Sequence record: PQ805429.1
Origin: Escherichia phage EK5
Reading direction: 5' to 3' (one strand)
Length of the DNA stretch: 64,000 nt
Positions within the stretch are counted from its first letter, which is position 1. Every line of letters starts with the position of its first letter. Position numbers and translations under genes: made by a program. Under the pieces are notes generated by a model. The model did no database searches. It was not told where the DNA came from and saw only the letters and a list, made by a program, of their open reading frames with translations. Positions 1,039 through 59,029 of this stretch are shown here, one piece after another.

Positions 1039-1247
1039 TGAAAAAGATGTGGGCTATTCATGTTGTTTGGGATCTTGAGCAACACATGAGAAAAGATAAC
1101 ATCAAATTGTTTGATACTCGCAAAGAGGCTCGTATTGCTAAGAAACAGTTGAAGACTCTGGGCACAATAGTAAAAAGCGCTGACATACATCGCTGGTATG
1201 AAGACCCTAACACTGGTTCTTTTATGTCTAAAGTAATTTACTACTGA
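1038..1247 (+). CDS. small protein, tandem paralog 3 of 3 (ends KVIYY)
   Basis: 69 aa; TAATG overlap; paralog pattern as above. Confidence 0.5.
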   Translation: MKKMWAIHVVWDLEQHMRKDNIKLFDTRKEARIAKKQLKTLGTIVKSADIHRWYEDPNTGSFMSKVIYY

Positions 1248-1319
1248 TTGGTAGTAGATATGGTAACTCTCAAATGTATATAGAGTACAATAAGAATTTG
1301 TATTTTACAGGAGAGAGTT

Positions 1320-1649
1320 ATGTTAGATTTGAGTAAAGTGGCCCCGCCCACTGAAGAGATTACAAAATCCAAGGTGATGCAACAGTTTTATCATCGTGAT
1401 ATGCTTGGTCGCTTTATCAAGAATCGTGATGTTGTTGCTTGGTCTATTGGTAATCAGGGATATCTGTTGAAGGTTCTTCAGGTTACAGGTTCAACTGCTA
1501 AGCGAGTTAAGGTGTATGACCCTGAAATGGGGCGTTCTAAGTCAGTAGACCCACAGAACTGCATCGTAATTACCCAGCAGGTAATGGATAATATTGCACG
1601 TAACGTTGCTAACTCAGTTGAACTTGATGGAGAAAACCCAAATGCATAA
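1320..1649 (+). CDS. hypothetical protein
   Basis: 109 aa ORF with RBS GGAGAG; no recognisable motif. Confidence 0.45.
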   Translation: MLDLSKVAPPTEEITKSKVMQQFYHRDMLGRFIKNRDVVAWSIGNQGYLLKVLQVTGSTAKRVKVYDPEMGRSKSVDPQNCIVITQQVMDNIARNVANSVELDGENPNA

Positions 1650-3403: not shown

Positions 3404-3652
3404 ATGGCTAGTAAAAGTATTTGGATTCTGAGTCGTGTTGAAGAGACAGACAGAGGGGAGTACACAGAAGTGCTTTGCTCTTTCATTACATACCCCACAA
3501 AACAACAGCTTGAAGATGCTGGAGTAGAAATAAATCTTTCTCAATCTCTTTTTGATAAAAAGGTTTCCAAGTCAACAGCCCCATTCTTTGGTTATTACTA
3601 CACACTTGATAGTTTGGAGCTACTGATGAATGATTCTTGTTTGGAGAATTAA
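3404..3652 (+). CDS. hypothetical protein
   Basis: 82 aa ORF, RBS GGAGAG upstream. Confidence 0.45.
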   Translation: MASKSIWILSRVEETDRGEYTEVLCSFITYPTKQQLEDAGVEINLSQSLFDKKVSKSTAPFFGYYYTLDSLELLMNDSCLEN

Positions 3653-3786
3653 TGTTGGAAGAAGATGACGATGTGTTCTGCACCAAGTGTGGGATGACAG
3701 TTGATGATGCATATGACCCAAGTGTAGAAATTTGTCCATGTTGCGGAGTATGTGAATATTGCTGTTCCCACAACTCAGAGGATTAG
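3652..3786 (+). CDS. small Cys-rich protein (putative zinc ribbon)
   Basis: 44 aa, CTKCG...CPCCGVCEYCC; start overlaps previous stop (TAATG). Confidence 0.35.
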   Translation: MLEEDDDVFCTKCGMTVDDAYDPSVEICPCCGVCEYCCSHNSED

Positions 3787-4198: not shown

Positions 4199-4524
4199 TT
4201 GACAGTAATACATTTAGGACTTCAAATGGAAGTGAAATAAGTCCCGCTGAAGTAATCAATCGGCATAGAAGGCAATTGATCATCCATTCCTATTTGTATT
4301 ACTGGTTGGATGACCCTATCTGGTCTGATGATAAATGGCAACAAGTTGCTAATGATCTAGTGGAGCTGCAAGCTCTGTATCCAGAGCCTACCGGAGTCTT
4401 TGACAATGAGTTCAAAGATTGGGATGGTTCTACAGGAATGCATCTCCCACACAATGAGGCTGTTGCTTGTATGGCGACAGCTGTTTACAGGATTCATAAA
4501 GATATGAACCATGAAGTGCTCTAA
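4195..4524 (+). CDS. hypothetical protein with NAD-ligase domain-Ia-like motif
   Basis: 109 aa; HSYLYYWLDDPIWSDDKWQQVANDLVELQALYPEP resembles the LigA N-terminal Ia pattern [29 protein letters not shown]..HPE. Confidence 0.4.
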   Translation: MIDSNTFRTSNGSEISPAEVINRHRRQLIIHSYLYYWLDDPIWSDDKWQQVANDLVELQALYPEPTGVFDNEFKDWDGSTGMHLPHNEAVACMATAVYRIHKDMNHEVL

Positions 4525-4696
4525 ATGTGAAGGAACAAACCTTCATTTAAGTAACAAGATTATCAGAGAGCTTGCCAAAGGCTCTCCAACCAAAGGGAAG
4601 AACAAACGATTTACTAACGTCAGGGTTTATACAGCAATCTGTAAAGACTGTTTAACTACTGAGTGTCATTACGAAGAAATTGGAGAGCGTAAATGA
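4511..4696 (+). CDS. small Cys-rich protein
   Basis: 61 aa; CSKCEG...CKDCLTTEC. Confidence 0.4.
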   Translation: MKCSKCEGTNLHLSNKIIRELAKGSPTKGKNKRFTNVRVYTAICKDCLTTECHYEEIGERK

Positions 4697-5436
4697 GTCG
4701 TCGTCAATCACGGAAAGAATCACGGAAAGACCTTCGTCGGGAAGCACTTGTTACTCGTAAGGGTAAGCGAGAGTATGAAGAGGTGGTTTTAGCAAAGCCT
4801 GTAGTCCCTCAGAACCAGTTTCAGTCTGAGCTACTCAATGCTATTAAGACTAAACAAGTTGTGTTCACAGACGCTCCTGCGGGCTGTGGTAAGACCTTTG
4901 TAATCACTTCCACGGTTATCGATGCACTGAAAAGTGGTAAGATTCAGAAGATCATTCTGAGTCGACCTTCAGTTGGCATGGGCAACTCTCTTGGGTTACT
5001 TCCTGGAGGAATGCGTGAGAAGTTTGAACCTTACCTGATGCCCATCATTGATGTTATTACTCAGCGATATGGTAAGGGGTTCTATGAATGCCAGCTCGGT
5101 AACAGTAACATTGAGTTCGTACCTCTGGAATATCTCCGTGGTCGTTCTTTCAATGATGCTATTGTTATTGTTGATGAATTCCAGAACACCACTAAAGATG
5201 AAGCCTTCTCGATCATGACTCGATTGGGAGAAACCTCTCAGCTGTTCTGCATGGGTGATACTAACCAGCATGATATGCGTGGTCGTGAGAGTGGTCTTAC
5301 TTGGGCTACTAACTTTATTGATGAACATGATCTGTATGAGTTCGCTGAGATTGTAGACGGCGAATCGGATGACATTGTTCGTTCTGGTTTCTGTAAAGCT
5401 ATTGTTAAAGCTATGGAAAAGGAACAAGATAAATGA
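4693..5436 (+). CDS. phoH: PhoH-like ATPase
   Basis: Walker A APAGCGKTF, Walker B IVIVDEFQNTT, PhoH block LEYLRGRSFNDA...MGDTNQHD. Confidence 0.85.
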   Translation: MSRRQSRKESRKDLRREALVTRKGKREYEEVVLAKPVVPQNQFQSELLNAIKTKQVVFTDAPAGCGKTFVITSTVIDALKSGKIQKIILSRPSVGMGNSLGLLPGGMREKFEPYLMPIIDVITQRYGKGFYECQLGNSNIEFVPLEYLRGRSFNDAIVIVDEFQNTTKDEAFSIMTRLGETSQLFCMGDTNQHDMRGRESGLTWATNFIDEHDLYEFAEIVDGESDDIVRSGFCKAIVKAMEKEQDK

Positions 5437-13361: not shown

Positions 13362-13385
13362 AGCCACCTCCGGGTGGCTTTTTTC
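13362..13385 (+). terminator. rho-independent terminator
   Basis: AGCCACC-TCCG-GGTGGCT followed by TTTTTT. Confidence 0.75.
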
Positions 13386-13397
13386 GTTGGAGACAAC

Positions 13398-13748
13398 ATG
13401 CAAAACACATTAAGTGATAACTTAGGGTTTATCGTTTTCTCAGCTCTTGTATTCTTTGGTGGTATGAAGTTTAACGAATATCAAACAGACAGCAGTAATC
13501 TGGACAAAGAGAAGCACCAGCAAGAGTTAGAGATTGAAAGAAGTAGAGCAGCTGATGAAGTTGCTCAGAGAGTTCTTACCGGTTTATCTAACTGGAAGAA
13601 GAACACGGAAACCGTTTATAAAGAGATGCATTATGAGAAAACTAAACCAGTTTTTTATAATGTCTGCGCTAGTGATGAGTATGTCAGCTTGTTCAACGAG
13701 CGACAACAGCAGGCAATCAATGCCCTTACCAACAAACCTAAAAGCTGA
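13398..13748 (+). CDS. putative i-spanin (Rz-like)
   Basis: N-terminal TM helix LGFIVFSALVFFGG followed by charged coiled-coil region; contains overlapping lipoprotein gene in +1 frame. Confidence 0.5.
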   Translation: MQNTLSDNLGFIVFSALVFFGGMKFNEYQTDSSNLDKEKHQQELEIERSRAADEVAQRVLTGLSNWKKNTETVYKEMHYEKTKPVFYNVCASDEYVSLFNERQQQAINALTNKPKS

Positions 13749-13892
13749 ATGTAGGGTTGACCTACCTCTTTTAGAAAGTGCTCAAGGAAAAGCACTAGCC
13801 ACTACGTTGGAGTGGTATCAGGACCAGTATACAGAATGTGCTGCTAATCACAATGGATTGTTAGAAGCTCTGAAAGAGCGTGGAATAGAATA

Positions 13893-13893
<1 letters not shown>
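13633..13893 (+). CDS. putative o-spanin (Rz1-like lipoprotein)
   Basis: ATG 13633 inside the i-spanin gene; signal peptide MRKLNQFFIMSALVMSMSAC with lipobox-like MSAC; short mature protein. Confidence 0.5.
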
Positions 13894-26958: not shown

Positions 26959-27741
26959 TTACTTTACACCAATGCTAGCCAAACGTCTGAGCACTGCTTG
27001 TGTTTGTGGACTGTACTGAGAACCTGCTGCATGTGGTGCACTTGCCCTCTGAACTGTTTGAGAAGTCGGAGGTTTACCAGCAAGCATAGCAGCTACACCT
27101 AATACTGCATTACCAAAGTTCTGTTGAGGCTTCTGATCTTCCCCTTCTTGTACTTCATCAGAGTAAAACTCTACCGGATTACCACCTAAAGCACCTGTCT
27201 TAGAAGCAGCAATCTCTGCCTGAGTGGGAGCTTGTGCAGCCTTCTCTCTGTCTAACAAGTCAGGGTTAAACTGATTGACTGGTTGAACAGCTTGCAAAGC
27301 TCCAATTGGGTTAGCAATCTGAGAAGCTGCATCACCGTAAAAAGGAAGAAAGTGTTTGTTGTTCATTGAGTCTAGAGCCTGAGGGGTAAACCCTTTCTTA
27401 CCAGCAAACATCTGCCTAGCACCCCCTGTCCCTTCAGAGTAACCAACCATTGCTTTCTTAACATCGCCATTAAAAGCTTTTAAGTTATCTCTGATATAAC
27501 GAGCACCCATGTCAATATTCTTTGCTGGGTCCAGTCTATCTTCTAGTTTGTATCCATAGTCTTTAGCCAATCCTTTACTGATCTGCATTAAACCTACAGG
27601 ACCAGTTCCAGAGGCTACTTTAGGACGTCCACTAGACTCTCTTTGGATTACAGCATGAATCAAAGCAGCAGGAATCCCATACTTCTTTGAAGCTTGCTGT
27701 ACCATTGGGTCTAGTTCTTCGATACCCATTCTAATTGCCAT
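26959..27741 (-). CDS. SLT-domain lytic transglycosylase (virion-associated)
   Basis: IPAALIHAVIQRESSGRP...GLMQI matches the SLT catalytic E-S and GLMQ motifs. Confidence 0.75.
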   Translation of the reverse strand: MAIRMGIEELDPMVQQASKKYGIPAALIHAVIQRESSGRPKVASGTGPVGLMQISKGLAKDYGYKLEDRLDPAKNIDMGARYIRDNLKAFNGDVKKAMVGYSEGTGGARQMFAGKKGFTPQALDSMNNKHFLPFYGDAASQIANPIGALQAVQPVNQFNPDLLDREKAAQAPTQAEIAASKTGALGGNPVEFYSDEVQEGEDQKPQQNFGNAVLGVAAMLAGKPPTSQTVQRASAPHAAGSQYSPQTQAVLRRLASIGVK

Positions 27742-33641: not shown

Positions 33642-34133
33642 TTAATATTTACCTTCGGTGTAAAGATTAGCTTCTGCAACTCTTCTATTATGAAGACCCT
33701 GACTTCTCTGCTTCTCTCCCTTGACCGTTATTTTATCCCAACGAAGAAATTCGGAATAAACATCCCCCTTAACATCTCCATTGATTACCTTCCTTAACTT
33801 AGATGTGCTCAAAGCCCCACTGCCAACATTGAAGTTGAAAGAAGTGAGTGCATCAAACTCATGAACTAGTAAAGGAACCTTTATGTTCTTCTGAGTAGCA
33901 CGAACAGAGTCTTGTGTGTCTCTATCTAGCAGAGCTAGACAATCCTCTATAGAATACGTTAATCCTTGTCTAACCGGATAACCATTCATATCGCGCGTAG
34001 CCCCTACACATATAGTCCAGATACCTGCGGAATCTTTATAAGCCTTTGTTCTCATACCCTCATGCTTCATGATGAATTCCATTCCAGCTGGGCTTAAGTT
34101 TAGTTGTACAGGTGGCAATGCGACGTTATCCAT
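33642..34133 (-). CDS. GH24 phage lysozyme (muramidase)
   Basis: MEFIMKHEGMRTKAYKDSAGIWTICVGAT matches T4/lambda lysozyme E...D...T catalytic region. Confidence 0.75.
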   Translation of the reverse strand: MDNVALPPVQLNLSPAGMEFIMKHEGMRTKAYKDSAGIWTICVGATRDMNGYPVRQGLTYSIEDCLALLDRDTQDSVRATQKNIKVPLLVHEFDALTSFNFNVGSGALSTSKLRKVINGDVKGDVYSEFLRWDKITVKGEKQRSQGLHNRRVAEANLYTEGKY

Positions 34134-34162
34134 TTCTAACCTCCTTTTGTAGTCCCTTTAAA

Positions 34163-34381
34163 TTAAGGTAGTATCTTTCTCAGAGCGTTAGATTCAGCAT
34201 CAGGGCAAATAACAACTAAGTTATTTTGAATTGTTCTCTGCTTGCATTGAGAGCTAAGCTTCTCTACTGGAGCAGGGACAGTTACTAATGGATGAACTGC
34301 GCCTACAGGAACTGCGGTGGATACCACAACACCTGCGCCTAAACATATTAAACCATATGCAGCTTGTTTCATCATTTTCAT
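34163..34381 (-). CDS. small exported protein
   Basis: 72 aa; N-terminal signal-like MKMMKQAAYGLICLGAGVVVSTAV. Confidence 0.45.
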   Translation of the reverse strand: MKMMKQAAYGLICLGAGVVVSTAVPVGAVHPLVTVPAPVEKLSSQCKQRTIQNNLVVICPDAESNALRKILP

Positions 34382-34473
34382 TTGAGTGTCTCCTATATAT
34401 TAACCTCTTGGGATATATTAGTTTCATTACTTACTAAGGGTACTCACTACTAAAGCCCCCGAAGGGGCTTATA

Positions 34474-49732: not shown

Positions 49733-49760
49733 TTGACAGCCTTTTCCTTTATTATATAGT
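49733..49760 (+). promoter_or_regulatory. sigma70-like promoter
   Basis: TTGACA-16 nt-TATAGT, about 45 nt upstream of ATG 49805. Confidence 0.5.
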
Positions 49761-51681: not shown

Positions 51682-51757
51682 GCTTAATCTTTCTCCTGTA
51701 TTGTGCCGTAGTCATGCCTATGGTCATAATTTATCTGATTCTCTAATCCTTCCTGTA

Positions 51758-51784
51758 AGCCTCCTAGTGAGGCTTTTCTCTTTT
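51758..51784 (+). terminator. rho-independent terminator
   Basis: AGCCTC-CTAGT-GAGGCT followed by TTTCTCTTTT. Confidence 0.65.
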
Positions 51785-52589: not shown

Positions 52590-52618
52590 TTGACAGCGAA
52601 AACAACATGATTCATAAT
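52590..52618 (+). promoter_or_regulatory. near-consensus sigma70 promoter inside ORF-free region
   Basis: TTGACA-17 nt-CATAAT. Confidence 0.5.
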
Positions 52619-54441: not shown

Positions 54442-54464
54442 GTAAGACAATTTAAATAAACATA

Positions 54465-54992: not shown

Positions 54993-55198
54993 TCACTAAC
55001 ATTTCAGAATTTAAGAAAGCACCTTCCCGCTTGTTAGGCCGTCGTGTTGTATATCTTTACAGCAATAAAGGTAAATGTACAACTGGACGAATTACAACGG
55101 TGAGTAGTGCTAACAAGAAACTGTTAAAGTTATGCGTAGCTATGGATGACGGTACAATCCTGCTACGCAGTTGGAAATCGTTTAGTTTACTAGATTAA
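54989..55198 (+). CDS. hypothetical protein
   Basis: 69 aa, ATGA overlap. Confidence 0.4.
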   Translation: MITNISEFKKAPSRLLGRRVVYLYSNKGKCTTGRITTVSSANKKLLKLCVAMDDGTILLRSWKSFSLLD

Positions 55199-55267
55199 GT
55201 TATTTGTTCAAGCCTATCGCCTTGATGGGCTTGCCCGATATAACTTATCACTGAAAGGAATAAGATT

Positions 55268-55711
55268 GTGGCTAAATCTAAAATCAGCATGAAGGGCGGG
55301 CGTTGTTTTGCTATCTCTGAACTAGAGAAAGAGAAACCGAAGGCAACTAATCACGTTAGTAAGCGTAGTTTAAAACGTCGTGCTGCAAAGGCTGAGGCTG
55401 AATCCCATGTTCCTTCCAGTGTGGCAAAGCGTGTAGGCCATCGTGTCCATCGGGCTGATGCGTTGTTGTTGGCTGATCATAAACGTTCTTTGTTAAAGAG
55501 CGGGGGAGCTAAAACAGAAGAGGAGAAGAAGTTAGAAATCTTCTGTAATGGTCGCACCCGTGGTAAACAGAAGTTTAAAGGTAGCACGAAAGACCCGCAG
55601 GCTTTCCCTAAGACAAGCCAGTGTGCACCTGATGTTTTCTACGCAGATAGTAAACACAAGTGGGGCGTTGAAAAATACATTGACCCCATCAAAGAGGCAA
55701 GGGTTAAGTAG
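55268..55711 (+). CDS. basic hypothetical protein
   Basis: 147 aa, GTG start after AAGGAA. Confidence 0.4.
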   Translation: MAKSKISMKGGRCFAISELEKEKPKATNHVSKRSLKRRAAKAEAESHVPSSVAKRVGHRVHRADALLLADHKRSLLKSGGAKTEEEKKLEIFCNGRTRGKQKFKGSTKDPQAFPKTSQCAPDVFYADSKHKWGVEKYIDPIKEARVK

Positions 55712-55791
55712 TAGGAATATAGCCCCCTCTTTTAGTACTATGACGCTCTTTCTGTAGCGTCGTGCCCTCTCCCCATTTGAAGCTTCCGCAT

Positions 55792-55814
55792 AGCCGCCTT
55801 TGAGCGGCTTTTTG
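55792..55814 (+). terminator. rho-independent terminator (first of tandem pair)
   Basis: AGCCGC-CTTTGA-GCGGCT followed by TTTTTG. Confidence 0.55.
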
Positions 55815-55875
55815 CGTTGCTGTAAGTGCATTTGCGAGTGTATTTATAGCAACGGTCATGTGTTGCTTTCAGGTT

Positions 55876-55901
55876 TGCCCCGGCTACGGCTGGGGCTTTT
55901 T
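55876..55901 (+). terminator. rho-independent terminator (second of tandem pair)
   Basis: GCCCCGGC-TACG-GCTGGGGC followed by TTTTTT. Confidence 0.65.
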
Positions 55902-55928
55902 TATGTCTACTGTATAGGAATCTATGAA

Positions 55929-56609
55929 ATGAAAGCAATTGTATTATCCTCAATCCTAGCTCTGTCCATAATGGCATCGCCTGTTTTTGCTAAAAGTGGA
56001 AACAATGGCAATGGCAATGGAGGTTGTGGTGTAGGTCAATCTACCAATGGTTGCGGTATCGGAGATTGGTTTAAAGGTGAAAAAGGTGATCAGGGAGAGA
56101 AAGGCGACACTGGCGCTAATGGCATTGATGGTAAAGATGGCATTGATGGAGAACAAGGCGCTCAAGGTGAAAAAGGTGATTCTGGTGCAGATGGTAAGAA
56201 AGGCGAAACTGGCCTAACTGGTGCAGCAGGTTTGAATGGCGTTGACGGATTAAATGGCAAAAACGGTAAAGATGCAGATATGTCTGCCGTTAATGCTAAC
56301 GCCAAATCCATCAAAGCTCTGGAACAATCCACCAATAAACGTTTTGCTTCTTTGCAAAAACAAGTAGACCGTAACCGTGATCATGCCTCTGCTGGTATTT
56401 CTGGCGTGGCTGCAATGGCTAACATCCCGCAAGTAAGTCAAGGATCTGCTTTCTCTGTTGGTGCTGGGGTAGGTGCTTACGATGGTGAATCTGCTCTTGC
56501 TATTGGTGTTAGTGCTCGTTTCAATGAAAACTTAGTAACTAAAGCATCAGTGGCAATGACTTCAGAGAGTGACGCTGTTCTGGGCGCTGGTGTAAGTTAC
56601 GAGTGGTAA
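55929..56609 (+). CDS. collagen-repeat protein with YadA-type C-terminal anchor (trimeric autotransporter-like)
   Basis: Start moved to ATG 55929; signal peptide MKAIVLSSILALSIMASPVFA; ~22 uninterrupted G-X-Y triplets; coiled-coil neck; C-terminus ...ALAIGVSARFNENLVTKASVAMTSESDAVLGAGVSYEW matches the YadA anchor ending. Confidence 0.7.
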   Translation: MKAIVLSSILALSIMASPVFAKSGNNGNGNGGCGVGQSTNGCGIGDWFKGEKGDQGEKGDTGANGIDGKDGIDGEQGAQGEKGDSGADGKKGETGLTGAAGLNGVDGLNGKNGKDADMSAVNANAKSIKALEQSTNKRFASLQKQVDRNRDHASAGISGVAAMANIPQVSQGSAFSVGAGVGAYDGESALAIGVSARFNENLVTKASVAMTSESDAVLGAGVSYEW

Positions 56610-56616
56610 GATAGTG

Positions 56617-56645
56617 CCTCTCCCGAAAGGGAGGGGTGTTTCTAT
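56617..56645 (+). terminator. rho-independent terminator
   Basis: CCTCTCCC-GAAA-GGGAGGGG followed by TGTTTCT. Confidence 0.6.
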
Positions 56646-56719
56646 AAGCATCTTTTCGAGGGTGTTTATTGAAACAACAAAACAGGAGGTAGCAAGTTCT
56701 GATAACAACGGCACAGCTA

Positions 56720-57109
56720 ATGTTGACATTGACTATTTATTATGAGGCAGGGAATCAGCCAACCGCATGTAAGGCTTTAGTTGCGGATACCGTGATAAAT
56801 AGAATGGCCCAACGAAAACTGACCGCTGAACAGGTGATAAGACAGAAGAACCAGTTTGAGTGGATTCCGGTACTATTAAAACAGGAGAAACCTTATAAAC
56901 GTTATGTAAAGCTGATTCGTGATAAAAATCCGATGACTAAGCAAGCCATTGGAGAAAGCGAGCGACTTGCTAAACGTGCCCTTAAGAAGAATTATGTTCC
57001 GCTGTACAGTGGGACTTACTTTCAGAGTAAGAGCGAAGGGGTGCCAAAATGGTATGCCAATCCTATGTATTGTGGTGATTTAGTGTTCGATAATAGCTCT
57101 AGGGAATAA
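56720..57109 (+). CDS. cell-wall hydrolase, SleB/CwlJ-like (Hydrolase_2)
   Basis: IYYEAGNQPTACKALVADTVINRMAQ resembles the Hydrolase_2 N-terminal motif GEA..E...G..AVA.VI.NR. Confidence 0.55.
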   Translation: MLTLTIYYEAGNQPTACKALVADTVINRMAQRKLTAEQVIRQKNQFEWIPVLLKQEKPYKRYVKLIRDKNPMTKQAIGESERLAKRALKKNYVPLYSGTYFQSKSEGVPKWYANPMYCGDLVFDNSSRE

Positions 57110-57308
57110 TCACTAGTGCCAGATTTGACAAACTAAATTCCTTTATAAACCAACCACTTAGTAAATTTATCGAAAAAGATGGTAGTATTCTGGGACTATG
57201 GGTAATGCTCTGTATATAGACCCTTTGAAAATTTCTTAGAAAATAAGTTTACTAAATATAACTTACTTAAATAATATTACTTTTAATCTCTGATAAAGGG
57301 TAAATAAT

Positions 57309-57605
57309 ATGACTTTAGAAGTATATAAATTCCTTTTTGTAAGCTGTTTAACTATCAGCGTTCTAGGATTTATTGTTCTCAGAAACAAAGCAGCAAGCTG
57401 GGAAAGAATGTATAAATCCCTAGTTCGAGTGGATGAGATGTATAACGAGAAGGTTAAAGTAACACTCAACGATCTTATTATGCAAGTTGAAGACAGAAAC
57501 AAACGTCTTCAGAACCTCAATCATGAAGTGTTGCGACTTGCTCGTGCTAATGAAGACTTACGAGTGGCTATTGCTAAGCAGCAGGAGATTAACAGTGAAA
57601 GTTAA
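57309..57605 (+). CDS. membrane-anchored coiled-coil protein (possible holin or spanin-like lysis accessory)
   Basis: 98 aa; TM helix FLFVSCLTISVLGFIVL then charged helical region; next to hydrolase gene. Confidence 0.35.
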   Translation: MTLEVYKFLFVSCLTISVLGFIVLRNKAASWERMYKSLVRVDEMYNEKVKVTLNDLIMQVEDRNKRLQNLNHEVLRLARANEDLRVAIAKQQEINSES

Positions 57606-57831
57606 TATTAAATCTGATTATACAATGCTTCGATTAAATAACATGAAGCCGGGCGTTCTGTTTGAGCGTAAAGAATCCCTTTACATTAGAACCGACACAT
57701 TGTACGCAGACAATTATGTCAACTGTGTTGATGTGGTAACTGGAAAGCTCATGCCTTTTAAACGGGATGAAGTCTGCCAAGTACGTAGTGATCTCCACAT
57801 AACTAACATAGGGGCTAAGGATGAAGATTAA
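57595..57831 (+). CDS. small protein, paralog family member
   Basis: GTG start after AGGAG; shares family pattern with 57821, 58079, 60721, 62146, 62394, 62642. Confidence 0.4.
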   Translation: MKVNIKSDYTMLRLNNMKPGVLFERKESLYIRTDTLYADNYVNCVDVVTGKLMPFKRDEVCQVRSDLHITNIGAKDED

Positions 57832-58078
57832 TCTTGAAGTAAATGAACCGTCTTTGTGTGTTGGTGATCTCAAACTTGGAGATGTATTCCAAATCAGGGA
57901 AACACGAGCAGATTTCTACATGGTTGTTCAGCTATTTACCTCACAGATTGAAGAGACCAAGCCTTCTGATGGTGGTTGTGTCGTCCTTAGTCTAACAAAT
58001 AAGCAAGTCCTTAAGCTCAGCTCGAAAAGCAAGGTTGTTCTTCTTCATGATGTTGTTATTACTAACAAGGGTAAGTGA
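57821..58078 (+). CDS. small protein, paralog family member
   Basis: 85 aa; MKI..., L..GDVF motif. Confidence 0.45.
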   Translation: MKINLEVNEPSLCVGDLKLGDVFQIRETRADFYMVVQLFTSQIEETKPSDGGCVVLSLTNKQVLKLSSKSKVVLLHDVVITNKGK

Positions 58079-58297
58079 ATGGAAATTAAAGTAGTTGATT
58101 ATCCTAAATATGCAAATGCAGAAGACGTTAAAAGTGGTGATGTTTTCTCTTACGATAGACGTTTCTGGCTGATGTTAGAAGATAAAACTCCTGATGGTTT
58201 GTGTAAGGCCGCCGATCTGAACAGTGGTTCTGTTGAAGTCTTCGGTTTATCAACCACTGTTATGCCCCGTCCTGATCTGTGTTTATCCCAAAAGTAA
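58079..58297 (+). CDS. small protein, paralog family member
   Basis: 72 aa; V.SGDVF motif, LNSGSVE. Confidence 0.45.
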   Translation: MEIKVVDYPKYANAEDVKSGDVFSYDRRFWLMLEDKTPDGLCKAADLNSGSVEVFGLSTTVMPRPDLCLSQK

Positions 58298-58305
58298 CAT
58301 CGACT

Positions 58306-58408
58306 TATAGCCCTTGTGTTTATCAGAGGGCTATGTGAGGGTGTTCCTCATTAACTTATTAATTCAGGCATATGCCACACCGCTAGGGAGAGCTTGCTCG
58401 AACATCCG
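58306..58408 (+). repeat. conserved intergenic element, copy A
   Basis: Hairpin TATAGCCCT...AGGGCTATGTGAG plus GCTAGGGAGAG...CTCGAACATCCG; second copy at 63584-63693. Confidence 0.5.
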
Positions 58409-58785
58409 GTGTTAGACTAAAACCTGTCAATTTTCGAAAGACTTTCTGATATGTAGGGGTACATATTGGTTTGGGATTCAGGAGACTTCCTAGGGGTAGG
58501 GAGTCTTCACCAGTTGGAATAAGAGATAGCTCTAGAACCTGAACTCTTAGGCAGAGAGGGTCGGCAATGAGTACGCGGTCAGAATTAGTCTACTGACTAG
58601 AGCTATCCCTTATATTAACTGGCAATAATGCCTCCACTAACAAAGAGAGATAGGTATGAAAGTATCAACCAAACGTATGAACCGCCCTGAACGTATGGAT
58701 GTAGTAGCTAATGGTGCTCTGAAACTGGAAGGCTTTTGGATTCATGCAATGTCAGCCATCCGTAACAAACAAGGCAATTGGACCT

Positions 58786-58995
58786 ATGCCGGTTAAGACA
58801 ACCCATGTGATAGGTATGCGAGAGATCATTCGCATTGCCTTGATGGAACACACAGAACGCAACATTCAACTAACGCAAATCTCTAAGTGTCTTAATTGCT
58901 CAAGAGATGTGGCTAAGGAGTTGATGTTTGCATTCCTGTATAATGCAGAAGACGAAATGCTACAGAATCATCTGATTCGTTGTGTTAGTCAATAA
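58786..58995 (+). CDS. hypothetical protein (possible HTH)
   Basis: Start moved to ATG 58786; terminator follows. Confidence 0.4.
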   Translation: MPVKTTHVIGMREIIRIALMEHTERNIQLTQISKCLNCSRDVAKELMFAFLYNAEDEMLQNHLIRCVSQ

Positions 58996-58999
58996 AGAG

Positions 59000-59029
59000 A
59001 GGCTGCCTTCGGGCGGCCTTTGTTGTTTT
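59000..59029 (+). terminator. rho-independent terminator
   Basis: AGGCTGCC-TTCG-GGCGGCCT followed by TTGTTGTTTT. Confidence 0.7.

Follow-up and report, generated by a model that had tools for sequence, protein, structure and literature searches.

Genes 117 and 116 of Escherichia phage EK5 had been read, from their sequence, as a possible lysis pair in which a SleB/CwlJ-like hydrolase is followed by a holin or antiholin. Our analysis does not support that pairing. We tentatively favour a reading in which gene 117 specifies an accessory, holin-dependent soluble endolysin, and gene 116 a functionally separate early membrane protein.

Two conserved genes in the early region

The window analysed here is a stretch of 64,000 nucleotides of the EK5 genome (PQ805429.1). 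Over the 3.2 kb around both genes, the sequence shares 96-97% identity with Escherichia phage phiEco32 and some 100 related phages (Kuravirus, Gordonclarkvirinae). The coordinates given for the two open reading frames in the first-pass annotation were exact (56720-57109, 129 aa, and 57309-57605, 98 aa, both on the plus strand), and these frames are homologues of phi32_117 and phi32_116, respectively. The features of this region are as follows.

51757-51775: known terminator
56617..56634, plus strand: intrinsic-terminator-like hairpin between the adhesin gene and the hydrolase gene (terminator scan)
56684..56689, plus strand: Shine-Dalgarno sequence AGGAGG (read from the sequence)
56699..57109, plus strand: gene 117, phi32_117 homologue, SleB/CwlJ-type (Hydrolase_2) single-domain muralytic enzyme, counted from its probable start (annotated ATG at 56720)
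57110..57308, plus strand: AT-rich non-coding spacer (alignments), 199 nt here and 199-205 nt in relatives
57309..57605, plus strand: gene 116, phi32_116 homologue, bitopic membrane protein with a heptad-repeat helical tail (hydropathy, heptad analysis and family alignment)

In the orientation of the window, the late structural genes occupy the minus strand at about 18.7-49.3 kb, and the plus strand carries the middle genes (1-18.4 kb) and the early genes (49.8-64 kb). The rightward block that includes genes 116 and 117 (SU10 CDS69-125; the 'blue' phiEco32 genes; genes 69-128) has been described as the early, sigma70-transcribed class (PMC8948821, PMC4281155), an assignment that applies to the block as a whole and is taken from secondary descriptions rather than from gene-level data. 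Published gp36-dependent promoters are confined to positions upstream of genes 6, 13, 26, 40, 58 and 68. Strong early promoters were present, as expected, at 49733-49760 and 52590-52618, and an Rfam search of positions 55000-59000 returned nothing above chance. The literature that we searched contained no experiments on gp117 or gp116.

Homologues of the hydrolase and of gp116 were each found in 98 of the 99 phage records that match this region, which makes both close to core genes of the subfamily. All 98 records with gp116 are Escherichia or Shigella phages, and those checked belong to Gordonclarkvirinae. Hydrolase homologues with 31-36% identity occur in Salmonella phage 7-11, Cronobacter phages GAP52 and CsaP_009, Proteus phage Privateer, 3H10_20, J3S and one Edwardsiella phage, and others with about 40% identity are encoded by metagenomic phages of 82-90 kb. 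The hydrolase thus reaches Grimontviridae, and only in Gordonclarkvirinae and close metagenomic relatives is it linked to gp116. In 7-11, Privateer and the relatives L013 and L015, the genes downstream of the hydrolase encode small soluble or zinc-finger-like proteins, with no transmembrane or coiled-coil protein among them. The homologues of 7-11, GAP52, Privateer, CsaP_009 and others are annotated as endolysin or cell wall hydrolase; phage 7-11 has an additional 'putative endolysin', and the Privateer paper names an endopeptidase as the endolysin of that phage. The hydrolases of the window and the ECBP2 clade share 86% identity and their gp116 proteins only 45-48%, with the change in gp116 concentrated in its tail, indicating that the two proteins have different evolutionary histories and constraints.

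All three Gordonclarkvirinae genera, as well as L005 and L007, have the spacer between the two genes, and its conservation argues against tight translational or operonic coupling of genes 117 and 116. It contains an invariant 20-mer, AAACTAAATTCCYTTATAAA (57130-57149), which occurs once in the window and, in the related phages (Gordonclarkvirinae contigs), at the spacer position only, as well as TCTGTATATA at 57209-57218. A comparison of the spacer with 5,426 E. coli genomes gave no match. An sRNA or riboswitch was dropped as a candidate because no RNA structure was detected in the spacer (single-sequence z = +0.87; no consensus fold, RNAalifold -5 kcal/mol). A promoter scan returned a weak sigma70-like match (TTTACT-16-AATAAT, 57248-57275) directly upstream of gene 116, to which scans of ECBP2 and L007 gave no counterpart at the threshold used. 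A gp36-type promoter in the spacer was also considered and is a doubtful candidate: TCTGTATATAGA has 10 nt in common with the P68 region, but the -13 A that gp36 contacts is a C, and the motif is not enriched. By our own count, TGGTAG, further upstream, misses the register by 4 nt.

Gene 117 encodes a leaderless SleB-type hydrolase

The proposed SleB/CwlJ-like identity of the hydrolase was borne out by Pfam, by a 31-sequence family profile and by an invariant glutamate. The protein matches Hydrolase_2 (PF07486) with 32.2 bits against a cut-off of 27 (E = 1.7e-7) and phrog_938 'endolysin'. When PDB sequences were searched with the 31-sequence profile, the SleB catalytic domains 4F55 and 4FET were matched over the full length at about E = 1e-18; single-sequence and 11-sequence profiles returned nothing relevant from the same database, and SleB was reached only with the larger alignment. 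The hydrolase has the SleB catalytic-domain fold. E9 (E16 when counted from the CTG start described below) is invariant in the 31 homologues and aligns to the Glu of the YGE motif in SleB (4F55/4FET), located where helix 1 ends; we take this Glu to be the catalytic residue. R28 and Q45 are, like E9, invariant or nearly so in the 31-sequence alignment.

The observation that the hydrolase has no signal peptide also stood, and there is no transmembrane segment either (best KD19 mean 0.29, or 0.61 with the N-terminal extension). An exhaustive HMMER search yielded 75 representative relatives, many of them 130-145 aa long and with little room for a leader, as only 8-10 residues precede the match. 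The signal peptide and N-terminal peptidoglycan-binding domain that make up the rest of SleB are absent from this single-domain protein of 129-136 aa, and its domain architecture is CwlJ-like rather than SleB-like. A SAR endolysin was considered and rejected: the hydrophobic stretch before the putative catalytic Glu is only ~13-15 residues long (~18-22 in SAR segments), with a KD19 maximum of 0.61 even when the extension is included. In the model of the fold it forms helix 1, with pLDDT 97 (an earlier AlphaFold model, built from a shallow alignment, reached only pLDDT 51 and was set aside). The hydrolase is very basic, with a net charge of about +10, and high positive charge has also been reported for Hydrolase_2 lysins from Gram-negative phages (PMC8223927).

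The hydrolase and gp116 are both real genes, and purifying selection acts on each of them. The dN/dS of the hydrolase is 0.07-0.18, and selection of this strength indicates a working protein; for gp116, pN/pS is about 0.28 in comparison with KBNP1711. We expect gp117 to be enzymatically active, as a predicted lytic transglycosylase. SleB-type lytic transglycosylases cut the MurNAc-GlcNAc bond of polymerised glycan, a substrate that exists only outside the inner membrane.

The true start of the hydrolase is probably CTG 56699, 21 nt upstream of the annotated ATG, giving a gene of 136 codons. The AGGAGG at 56684-56689 lies 9 nt before this CTG and 30 nt before ATG 56720. GGAGGT is kept in four of the five aligned lineages, ECBP2 having a single purine change (GGGGGT), and the more distant relatives L005 and L007 have TTG at the aligned start position. 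In all five lineages, the gene measures exactly 136 codons from the CTG or TTG. Across the codons between CTG and ATG, the window and ECBP2 differ by 3.5 synonymous and 1.5 non-synonymous changes.

Three hairpins were found by the terminator scan upstream of the hydrolase, two at 55792-55809 and 55877-55896 and the third, past the adhesin gene, at 56617-56634; a further terminator-like hairpin, at 54464, also lies between the early promoters and the hydrolase. ECBP2 and L007, which lack the adhesin gene, have a cluster of four hairpins upstream of the hydrolase, compared with 0.7-1.0 expected by chance. The scan gave no sigma70-like promoter between the last hairpin (56617-56634) and the ribosome-binding site. 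The upstream terminator hairpins and the weak CTG start suggest that the hydrolase is expressed at a low level and made in small amounts.

Lysis genes and a virion wall enzyme are encoded elsewhere

Genes for holin, endolysin and spanin functions, and for a wall enzyme of the particle, were identified at other positions in the window.

34163..34381, minus strand: holin-like protein, phi32_16 homologue, 72 aa with one transmembrane domain (phrog_11161 'holin', E = 2.8e-50)
33642..34133, minus strand: GH24 phage lysozyme, phi32_17 homologue (PF00959, E = 3.7e-32; phrog_7 endolysin)
13374..13893, plus strand: overlapped spanin pair (Rz-like i-spanin, phrog_1152, E = 2.7e-37, phi32_39 type)
26959..27741, minus strand: SLT-domain internal virion protein, phi32_22 homologue, among the ejection proteins (PF01464, E = 1.7e-24)

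The GH24 gene lies directly downstream of the holin-like gene in the late cluster. The authors of the phiEco32 and SU10 genomes annotated phi32_16 as a putative holin and phi32_17 as a lysis protein, with SU10_014 and SU10_015 as their counterparts. The spanin genes are in the middle cluster, where the Rz-like i-spanin (13374/13398-13748) is overlapped in another frame by a candidate Rz1 lipoprotein (13633-13893) with a lipobox-like MSAC in its translation.

These assignments largely answer the question, raised with the lysis-pair proposal, of whether the GH24 lysozyme or the hydrolase is the true endolysin and which of the two is carried in the virion. GH24 is the endolysin of the late cassette, next to the putative holin. 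The virion-associated wall enzyme is a third protein, the SLT-domain internal virion protein, as judged from particles of the relative SU10. Proteomics of SU10 particles detected 34 proteins, including the SLT homologue CDS20 (39.6% coverage) and several non-structural proteins. Absent from the 34 are CDS14 (holin), CDS15 (GH24) and the counterparts of genes 116 and 117, CDS115 and CDS116. The idea that the hydrolase might be found in virions was thus not upheld in this relative.

Gene 116 encodes a bitopic coiled-coil protein

The description of the second gene as encoding a single transmembrane segment and a charged helical tail proved correct. The hydrophobic segment spans residues ~5-24 (KD 2.12), and in the best heptad register of the tail 55% of the a/d positions are L/I/V/M; three gp116 homologues match Pfam DUF7365, a 'coiled-coil region' family. 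The family alignment places the constraint in the transmembrane domain and a juxtamembrane RNK motif, and pN is 0.52 in the tail versus 0.19 in the region of the transmembrane domain. The charge after the transmembrane domain is +3, a bias which suggests that the coiled-coil tail is cytoplasmic.

In having an N-terminal transmembrane domain, a heptad helix of ~70 residues and a length of about 100 aa, gp116 is similar to several bitopic coiled-coil proteins (the i-spanin Rz; FtsB/FtsL/DivIC; PilO; ZipA-type N-out anchors). It has no significant sequence homology to Rz, FtsB/FtsL/DivIC, PilO or ZipA, however, its Pfam matches to DivIC and to coiled-coil DUFs being faint and below threshold, and no lipoprotein partner is encoded within or next to it. 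Its tail, if cytoplasmic as the +3 charge suggests, would also differ from the periplasmic tail of Rz or FtsB. An i-spanin was rejected on these and related grounds: the interval 57309-57605 and its flanks contain no lipobox ORF, gp116 matches no spanin family in PHROG or Pfam, and the genuine pair is at 13374-13893. Pfam and NCBIfam gave no function for gp116. The name 'DNA helicase' on its homologues in RefSeq and pharokka records was inherited from phrog_12154; no helicase domain was found, and the label is, on the evidence of the sequence, wrong.

As for the suggestion that gp116 is a holin or antiholin, its small size, one transmembrane domain and charged C terminus agree with it, but a coiled-coil tail of ~70 residues and the lack of a dual-start motif of the Met-Lys-Met type do not. 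We regard gp116 as a putative conserved early inner-membrane protein, and a host-takeover or exclusion function at that membrane seems more probable for it than a role in lysis timing. Judged by sequence alone, a holin role keeps some probability, the assignment of phi32_16 as the holin being itself positional.

Functions considered for genes 117 and 116

A lytic role as a soluble, holin-requiring enzyme is the most economical function for gp117. The protein would be a minimal, very basic, leaderless lytic transglycosylase of the SleB fold, present as a small, stable pool waiting in the cytoplasm and, by itself, without a route to murein. As it has neither a Sec leader nor a SAR segment, it would act only after the membrane has been breached, like lambda R or T4 E. 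Permeabilization of the inner membrane by the late holin, the phi32_16 homologue, would release gp117 to the wall, where it could cut glycan strands alongside GH24 as a second endolysin differing in bond chemistry. On this account, gp117 would be an accessory, and probably ancestral, soluble endolysin.

Three other explanations were weighed against this one. That gp116 serves gp117 as a dedicated holin or antiholin, so that the two form a second or even the true lysis cassette, is very unlikely. Such a cassette would join a small protein with one transmembrane domain and a charged C-terminal domain to a muralytic enzyme that lacks a leader and can reach the wall only through a membrane lesion; the genes are adjacent in essentially all Gordonclarkvirinae records (98 each, of 99), the assignment of phi32_16 as the holin is positional only, and T5-like phages keep lysis genes in an 'early' region. 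Nevertheless, the phage already has a canonical lysis set, with the holin-like gene next to GH24 in the late cluster and the spanins elsewhere, and genes 116 and 117 lie in the block described as early. They are also not contiguous, being separated by the conserved spacer (199 nt here, ~200 nt in general), and the hydrolase is insulated behind terminator hairpins. Hydrolases of 7-11, GAP52, Privateer, L013, L015 and metagenomic relatives have no gp116 neighbour, and the heptad tail of gp116, together with the absence of a dual start, is atypical for holins. For these reasons, we found the lysis-pair reading to be unsupported. Use of gp117 as a virion-associated enzyme at entry is less probable still, to the point of being barely credible: the protein has a muralytic fold, but its gene is far from the structural module, neither CDS116 nor CDS115 accompanies the SLT protein among the 34 proteins of SU10 particles, and the SLT protein already fills the entry role.

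A non-lytic early function of gp117 is more plausible than either, although we consider it unlikely. The enzyme might remodel murein locally, interfere with superinfection or act as a regulator in the manner of T7 lysozyme, perhaps with gp116 as a membrane partner. T7 lysozyme (gp3.5) is a leaderless murein hydrolase that is expressed before the late genes and waits in the cytoplasm; it has an amidase fold, and its proven regulatory partner is T7 RNA polymerase. The position of gene 117 in the early region is kept in two phage families, its design, with a terminator cluster and a conserved CTG/TTG start, suggests tightly limited expression, and it is strictly conserved despite a GH24 endolysin that appears sufficient. 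The function of 'second SleB-like lysins' is, moreover, an acknowledged open point (PMC11180984). Against such a function, gp117 has no export signal or SAR-like segment with which to gain access to murein before the membrane is damaged, and the cytoplasm contains no polymerised MurNAc-GlcNAc glycan. The only proteins reported to accompany RNA polymerase purified from infected cells are gp36 and gp79 (PMC12276001). The narrower proposition that a leaderless SleB-fold protein is kept deliberately scarce, and conserved early in two families, for some job other than end-point lysis is improbable in our estimate; an early membrane-proximal activity or protein-protein regulation together with gp116 is one form that it could take. 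If it were true, it would define the function of a widespread 'second SleB-like lysin' of virulent Gram-negative phages.

Two observations do not fit easily with an accessory endolysin. An enzyme that is transcribed only early, behind terminators and with a non-AUG start, may be too scarce at the time of lysis, and redundancy with GH24 leaves the strict conservation of gp117 unaccounted for.

Relation to known systems

The SleB/CwlJ enzymes of the Bacillus spore cortex (4F55, 4FET) share their catalytic fold with gp117 but differ from it in several respects. SleB has a signal peptide and an N-terminal peptidoglycan-binding domain, and gp117 has neither. The phage-encoded protein is very basic, contains a helical insertion of ~20 residues (residues ~58-87), and in its lineage the C-terminal GDHxF motif reads GDLVF. 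Muramic delta-lactam, the specificity determinant of SleB, is absent from the murein of the host of this phage.

A closer likeness is to the orphan second SleB-like lysins (T5-like ORF81, PVP-SE1/BME3, Salmonella MET_P1 phages, 7-11 AEK82026 and Privateer gp098). Like gp117, these are small Hydrolase_2 proteins with no leader, and their genes sit in the early or replication module, at a distance from those for the holin and main endolysin. The proteins of 7-11, Privateer and GAP52 are direct homologues of gp117, with identities of 32-36%. A main endolysin near the holin combined with a SleB-like hydrolase in the early/replication module has been described for T5-like AKFV33, PVP-SE1/BME3 and several Salmonella phages, and for the Salmonella phages the authors considered it unclear which of the two enzymes is primarily used (PMC11180984). 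The Gordonclarkvirinae hydrolase is distinguished by its upstream terminator cluster, its CTG start and the spacer and gp116 that follow it, none of which was seen in 7-11, Privateer, L013 or L015.

Relative to canonical holin-endolysin-spanin systems, gp117 is similar to lambda R and T4 E in that a leaderless soluble enzyme would depend on a holin. Unlike lambda S/R/Rz/Rz1, genes 117 and 116 lie outside the late cassette and are not contiguous, and the 'holin' candidate has a long coiled coil; the lambda-type system is already present in this phage as phi32_16/17/39. With T7 lysozyme, gp117 has in common that it is a leaderless murein hydrolase of the pre-late period, and it differs in lacking the amidase fold and a proven RNA polymerase partner.

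Annotation of the two genes

Both genes have been in GenBank since the phiEco32 genome of 2008, gp117 is already named a cell wall hydrolase in some records, and the two do not constitute a new kind of system. As a lysis pair they are of no importance, since the lysis genes of the phage are already accounted for. The value of the analysis lies instead in gp117 as a clean, well-conserved addition to the second SleB-like hydrolases of T5-like, rV5/PVP-SE1-like, 7-11-like and phiEco32-like phages. With its known temporal promoters, phiEco32 is a tractable model and a good place in which to test the role of these enzymes.

Several annotations can be corrected. Where gp117 is listed as a 'hypothetical protein' it should be named a SleB-type cell-wall hydrolase, the start of its gene is probably mis-set, and the helicase label on gp116 should be dropped. 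A further annotated gene, phi32_118, is probably spurious.

Layout of the wall and lysis genes

The wall and lysis functions of phage EK5 are spread across three temporal modules rather than gathered in one cassette, with a SleB-like hydrolase gene (the homologue of phi32_117) lying in the early cluster:

13374-13893, + strand: spanins, middle cluster
33642-34381, - strand: holin-like gene and GH24 lysozyme gene, within the tail cluster
56699-57109, + strand: SleB-like hydrolase gene, early cluster

Just 5' of the holin-like gene, TAATATATA (34394-34402, - strand) differs at a single position from TAATGTATA, the consensus for promoters dependent on the phage factor gp36; this sole mismatch falls on a specifically read G. 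The site might conceivably serve the holin-endolysin pair as a separate weak late promoter.

Start codon of the hydrolase gene

The annotated start of the hydrolase gene (ATG 56720) is probably wrong, and CTG 56699 fits instead.

56684-56722, + strand: hydrolase start region
56614-56745, + strand: phi32_118-like open reading frame, 43 amino acids, GTG start

A conserved AGGAGG is spaced for CTG 56699, the aligned position in relatives is occupied by TTG and, counted from this CTG/TTG position, the gene has 136 codons in all lineages. Changes in the codons upstream of the annotated start are mostly synonymous. Conservation of a non-AUG start implies that the hydrolase would be translated weakly. 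The phi32_118-like open reading frame is probably spurious; it extends across a terminator hairpin and shares sequence, in a different frame, with the extended N-terminus of the hydrolase.

Hairpin clusters and an adhesin gene upstream

In all lineages examined, three to four hairpins resembling intrinsic terminators lie directly upstream of the hydrolase gene, compared with a chance expectation of 0.7-1.0:

55792-55896 and 56617-56634: terminator-like hairpins in the window
1198-1426 of locus L092: the corresponding cluster in one comparison locus
4520-4955 of locus L007: the corresponding cluster in another
55929-56609, + strand: phi32_119 homologue annotated as an 'agglutinating adhesin', early region

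The clusters point to a strong transcriptional boundary within the 'early' block. The adhesin gene has terminator hairpins on both sides (55877-55896 and 56617-56634), and its product is trimeric-autotransporter-like, with a signal peptide, collagen GXY repeats and a match to YadA_anchor (PF03895, E = 2.9e-19). None of the relatives compared (SU10, ECBP2, KBNP1711 and loci L005 and L007) carries it, a distribution suggestive of a moron that entered between the terminator cluster and the hydrolase gene.

A conserved spacer and the genes that follow

Between the hydrolase gene and gene 116 (57309-57605, + strand) lies a non-coding spacer of conserved length, followed beyond gene 116 by a set of small genes:

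57110-57308, + strand: spacer, with the invariant 20-mer AAACTAAATTCCYTTATAAA at 57130-57149
57595-58297, + strand: three small tandem paralogues
3500-3727 and 4404-4661 of locus L089: small proteins encoded on either side of the SleB-like gene in Salmonella phage 7-11

The 20-mer is retained even though, between the same lineages, the neighbouring hydrolase gene is near or past saturation at its synonymous sites. Within Gordonclarkvirinae the block occurs at this spacer position only, neither it nor the spacer had a match in E. coli genomes, and a search for RNA structure in the spacer detected none. Further into the spacer, TCTGTATATAGA (57209-57219, + strand) has TGTATATAGA in common with the sequence around P68 (1272-1285, + strand), a middle promoter that depends on gp36, but carries C in place of the -13 A contacted by gp36; gene 116 may possibly have a weak middle promoter here.

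RefSeq and BASEL records call gp116 homologues 'DNA helicase', a misnomer that stems from the phrog_12154 label; no helicase domain was found in the 98-amino-acid gp116, which consists of a transmembrane segment and a coiled coil. The three paralogues (78, 85 and 72 amino acids) have phrog_6570/7832 in common, and are weakly similar to the 7-11 flanking proteins (pairwise E = 0.01), a likeness hinting that gene 116 and the spacer were inserted into an older arrangement of hydrolase and small-protein genes.
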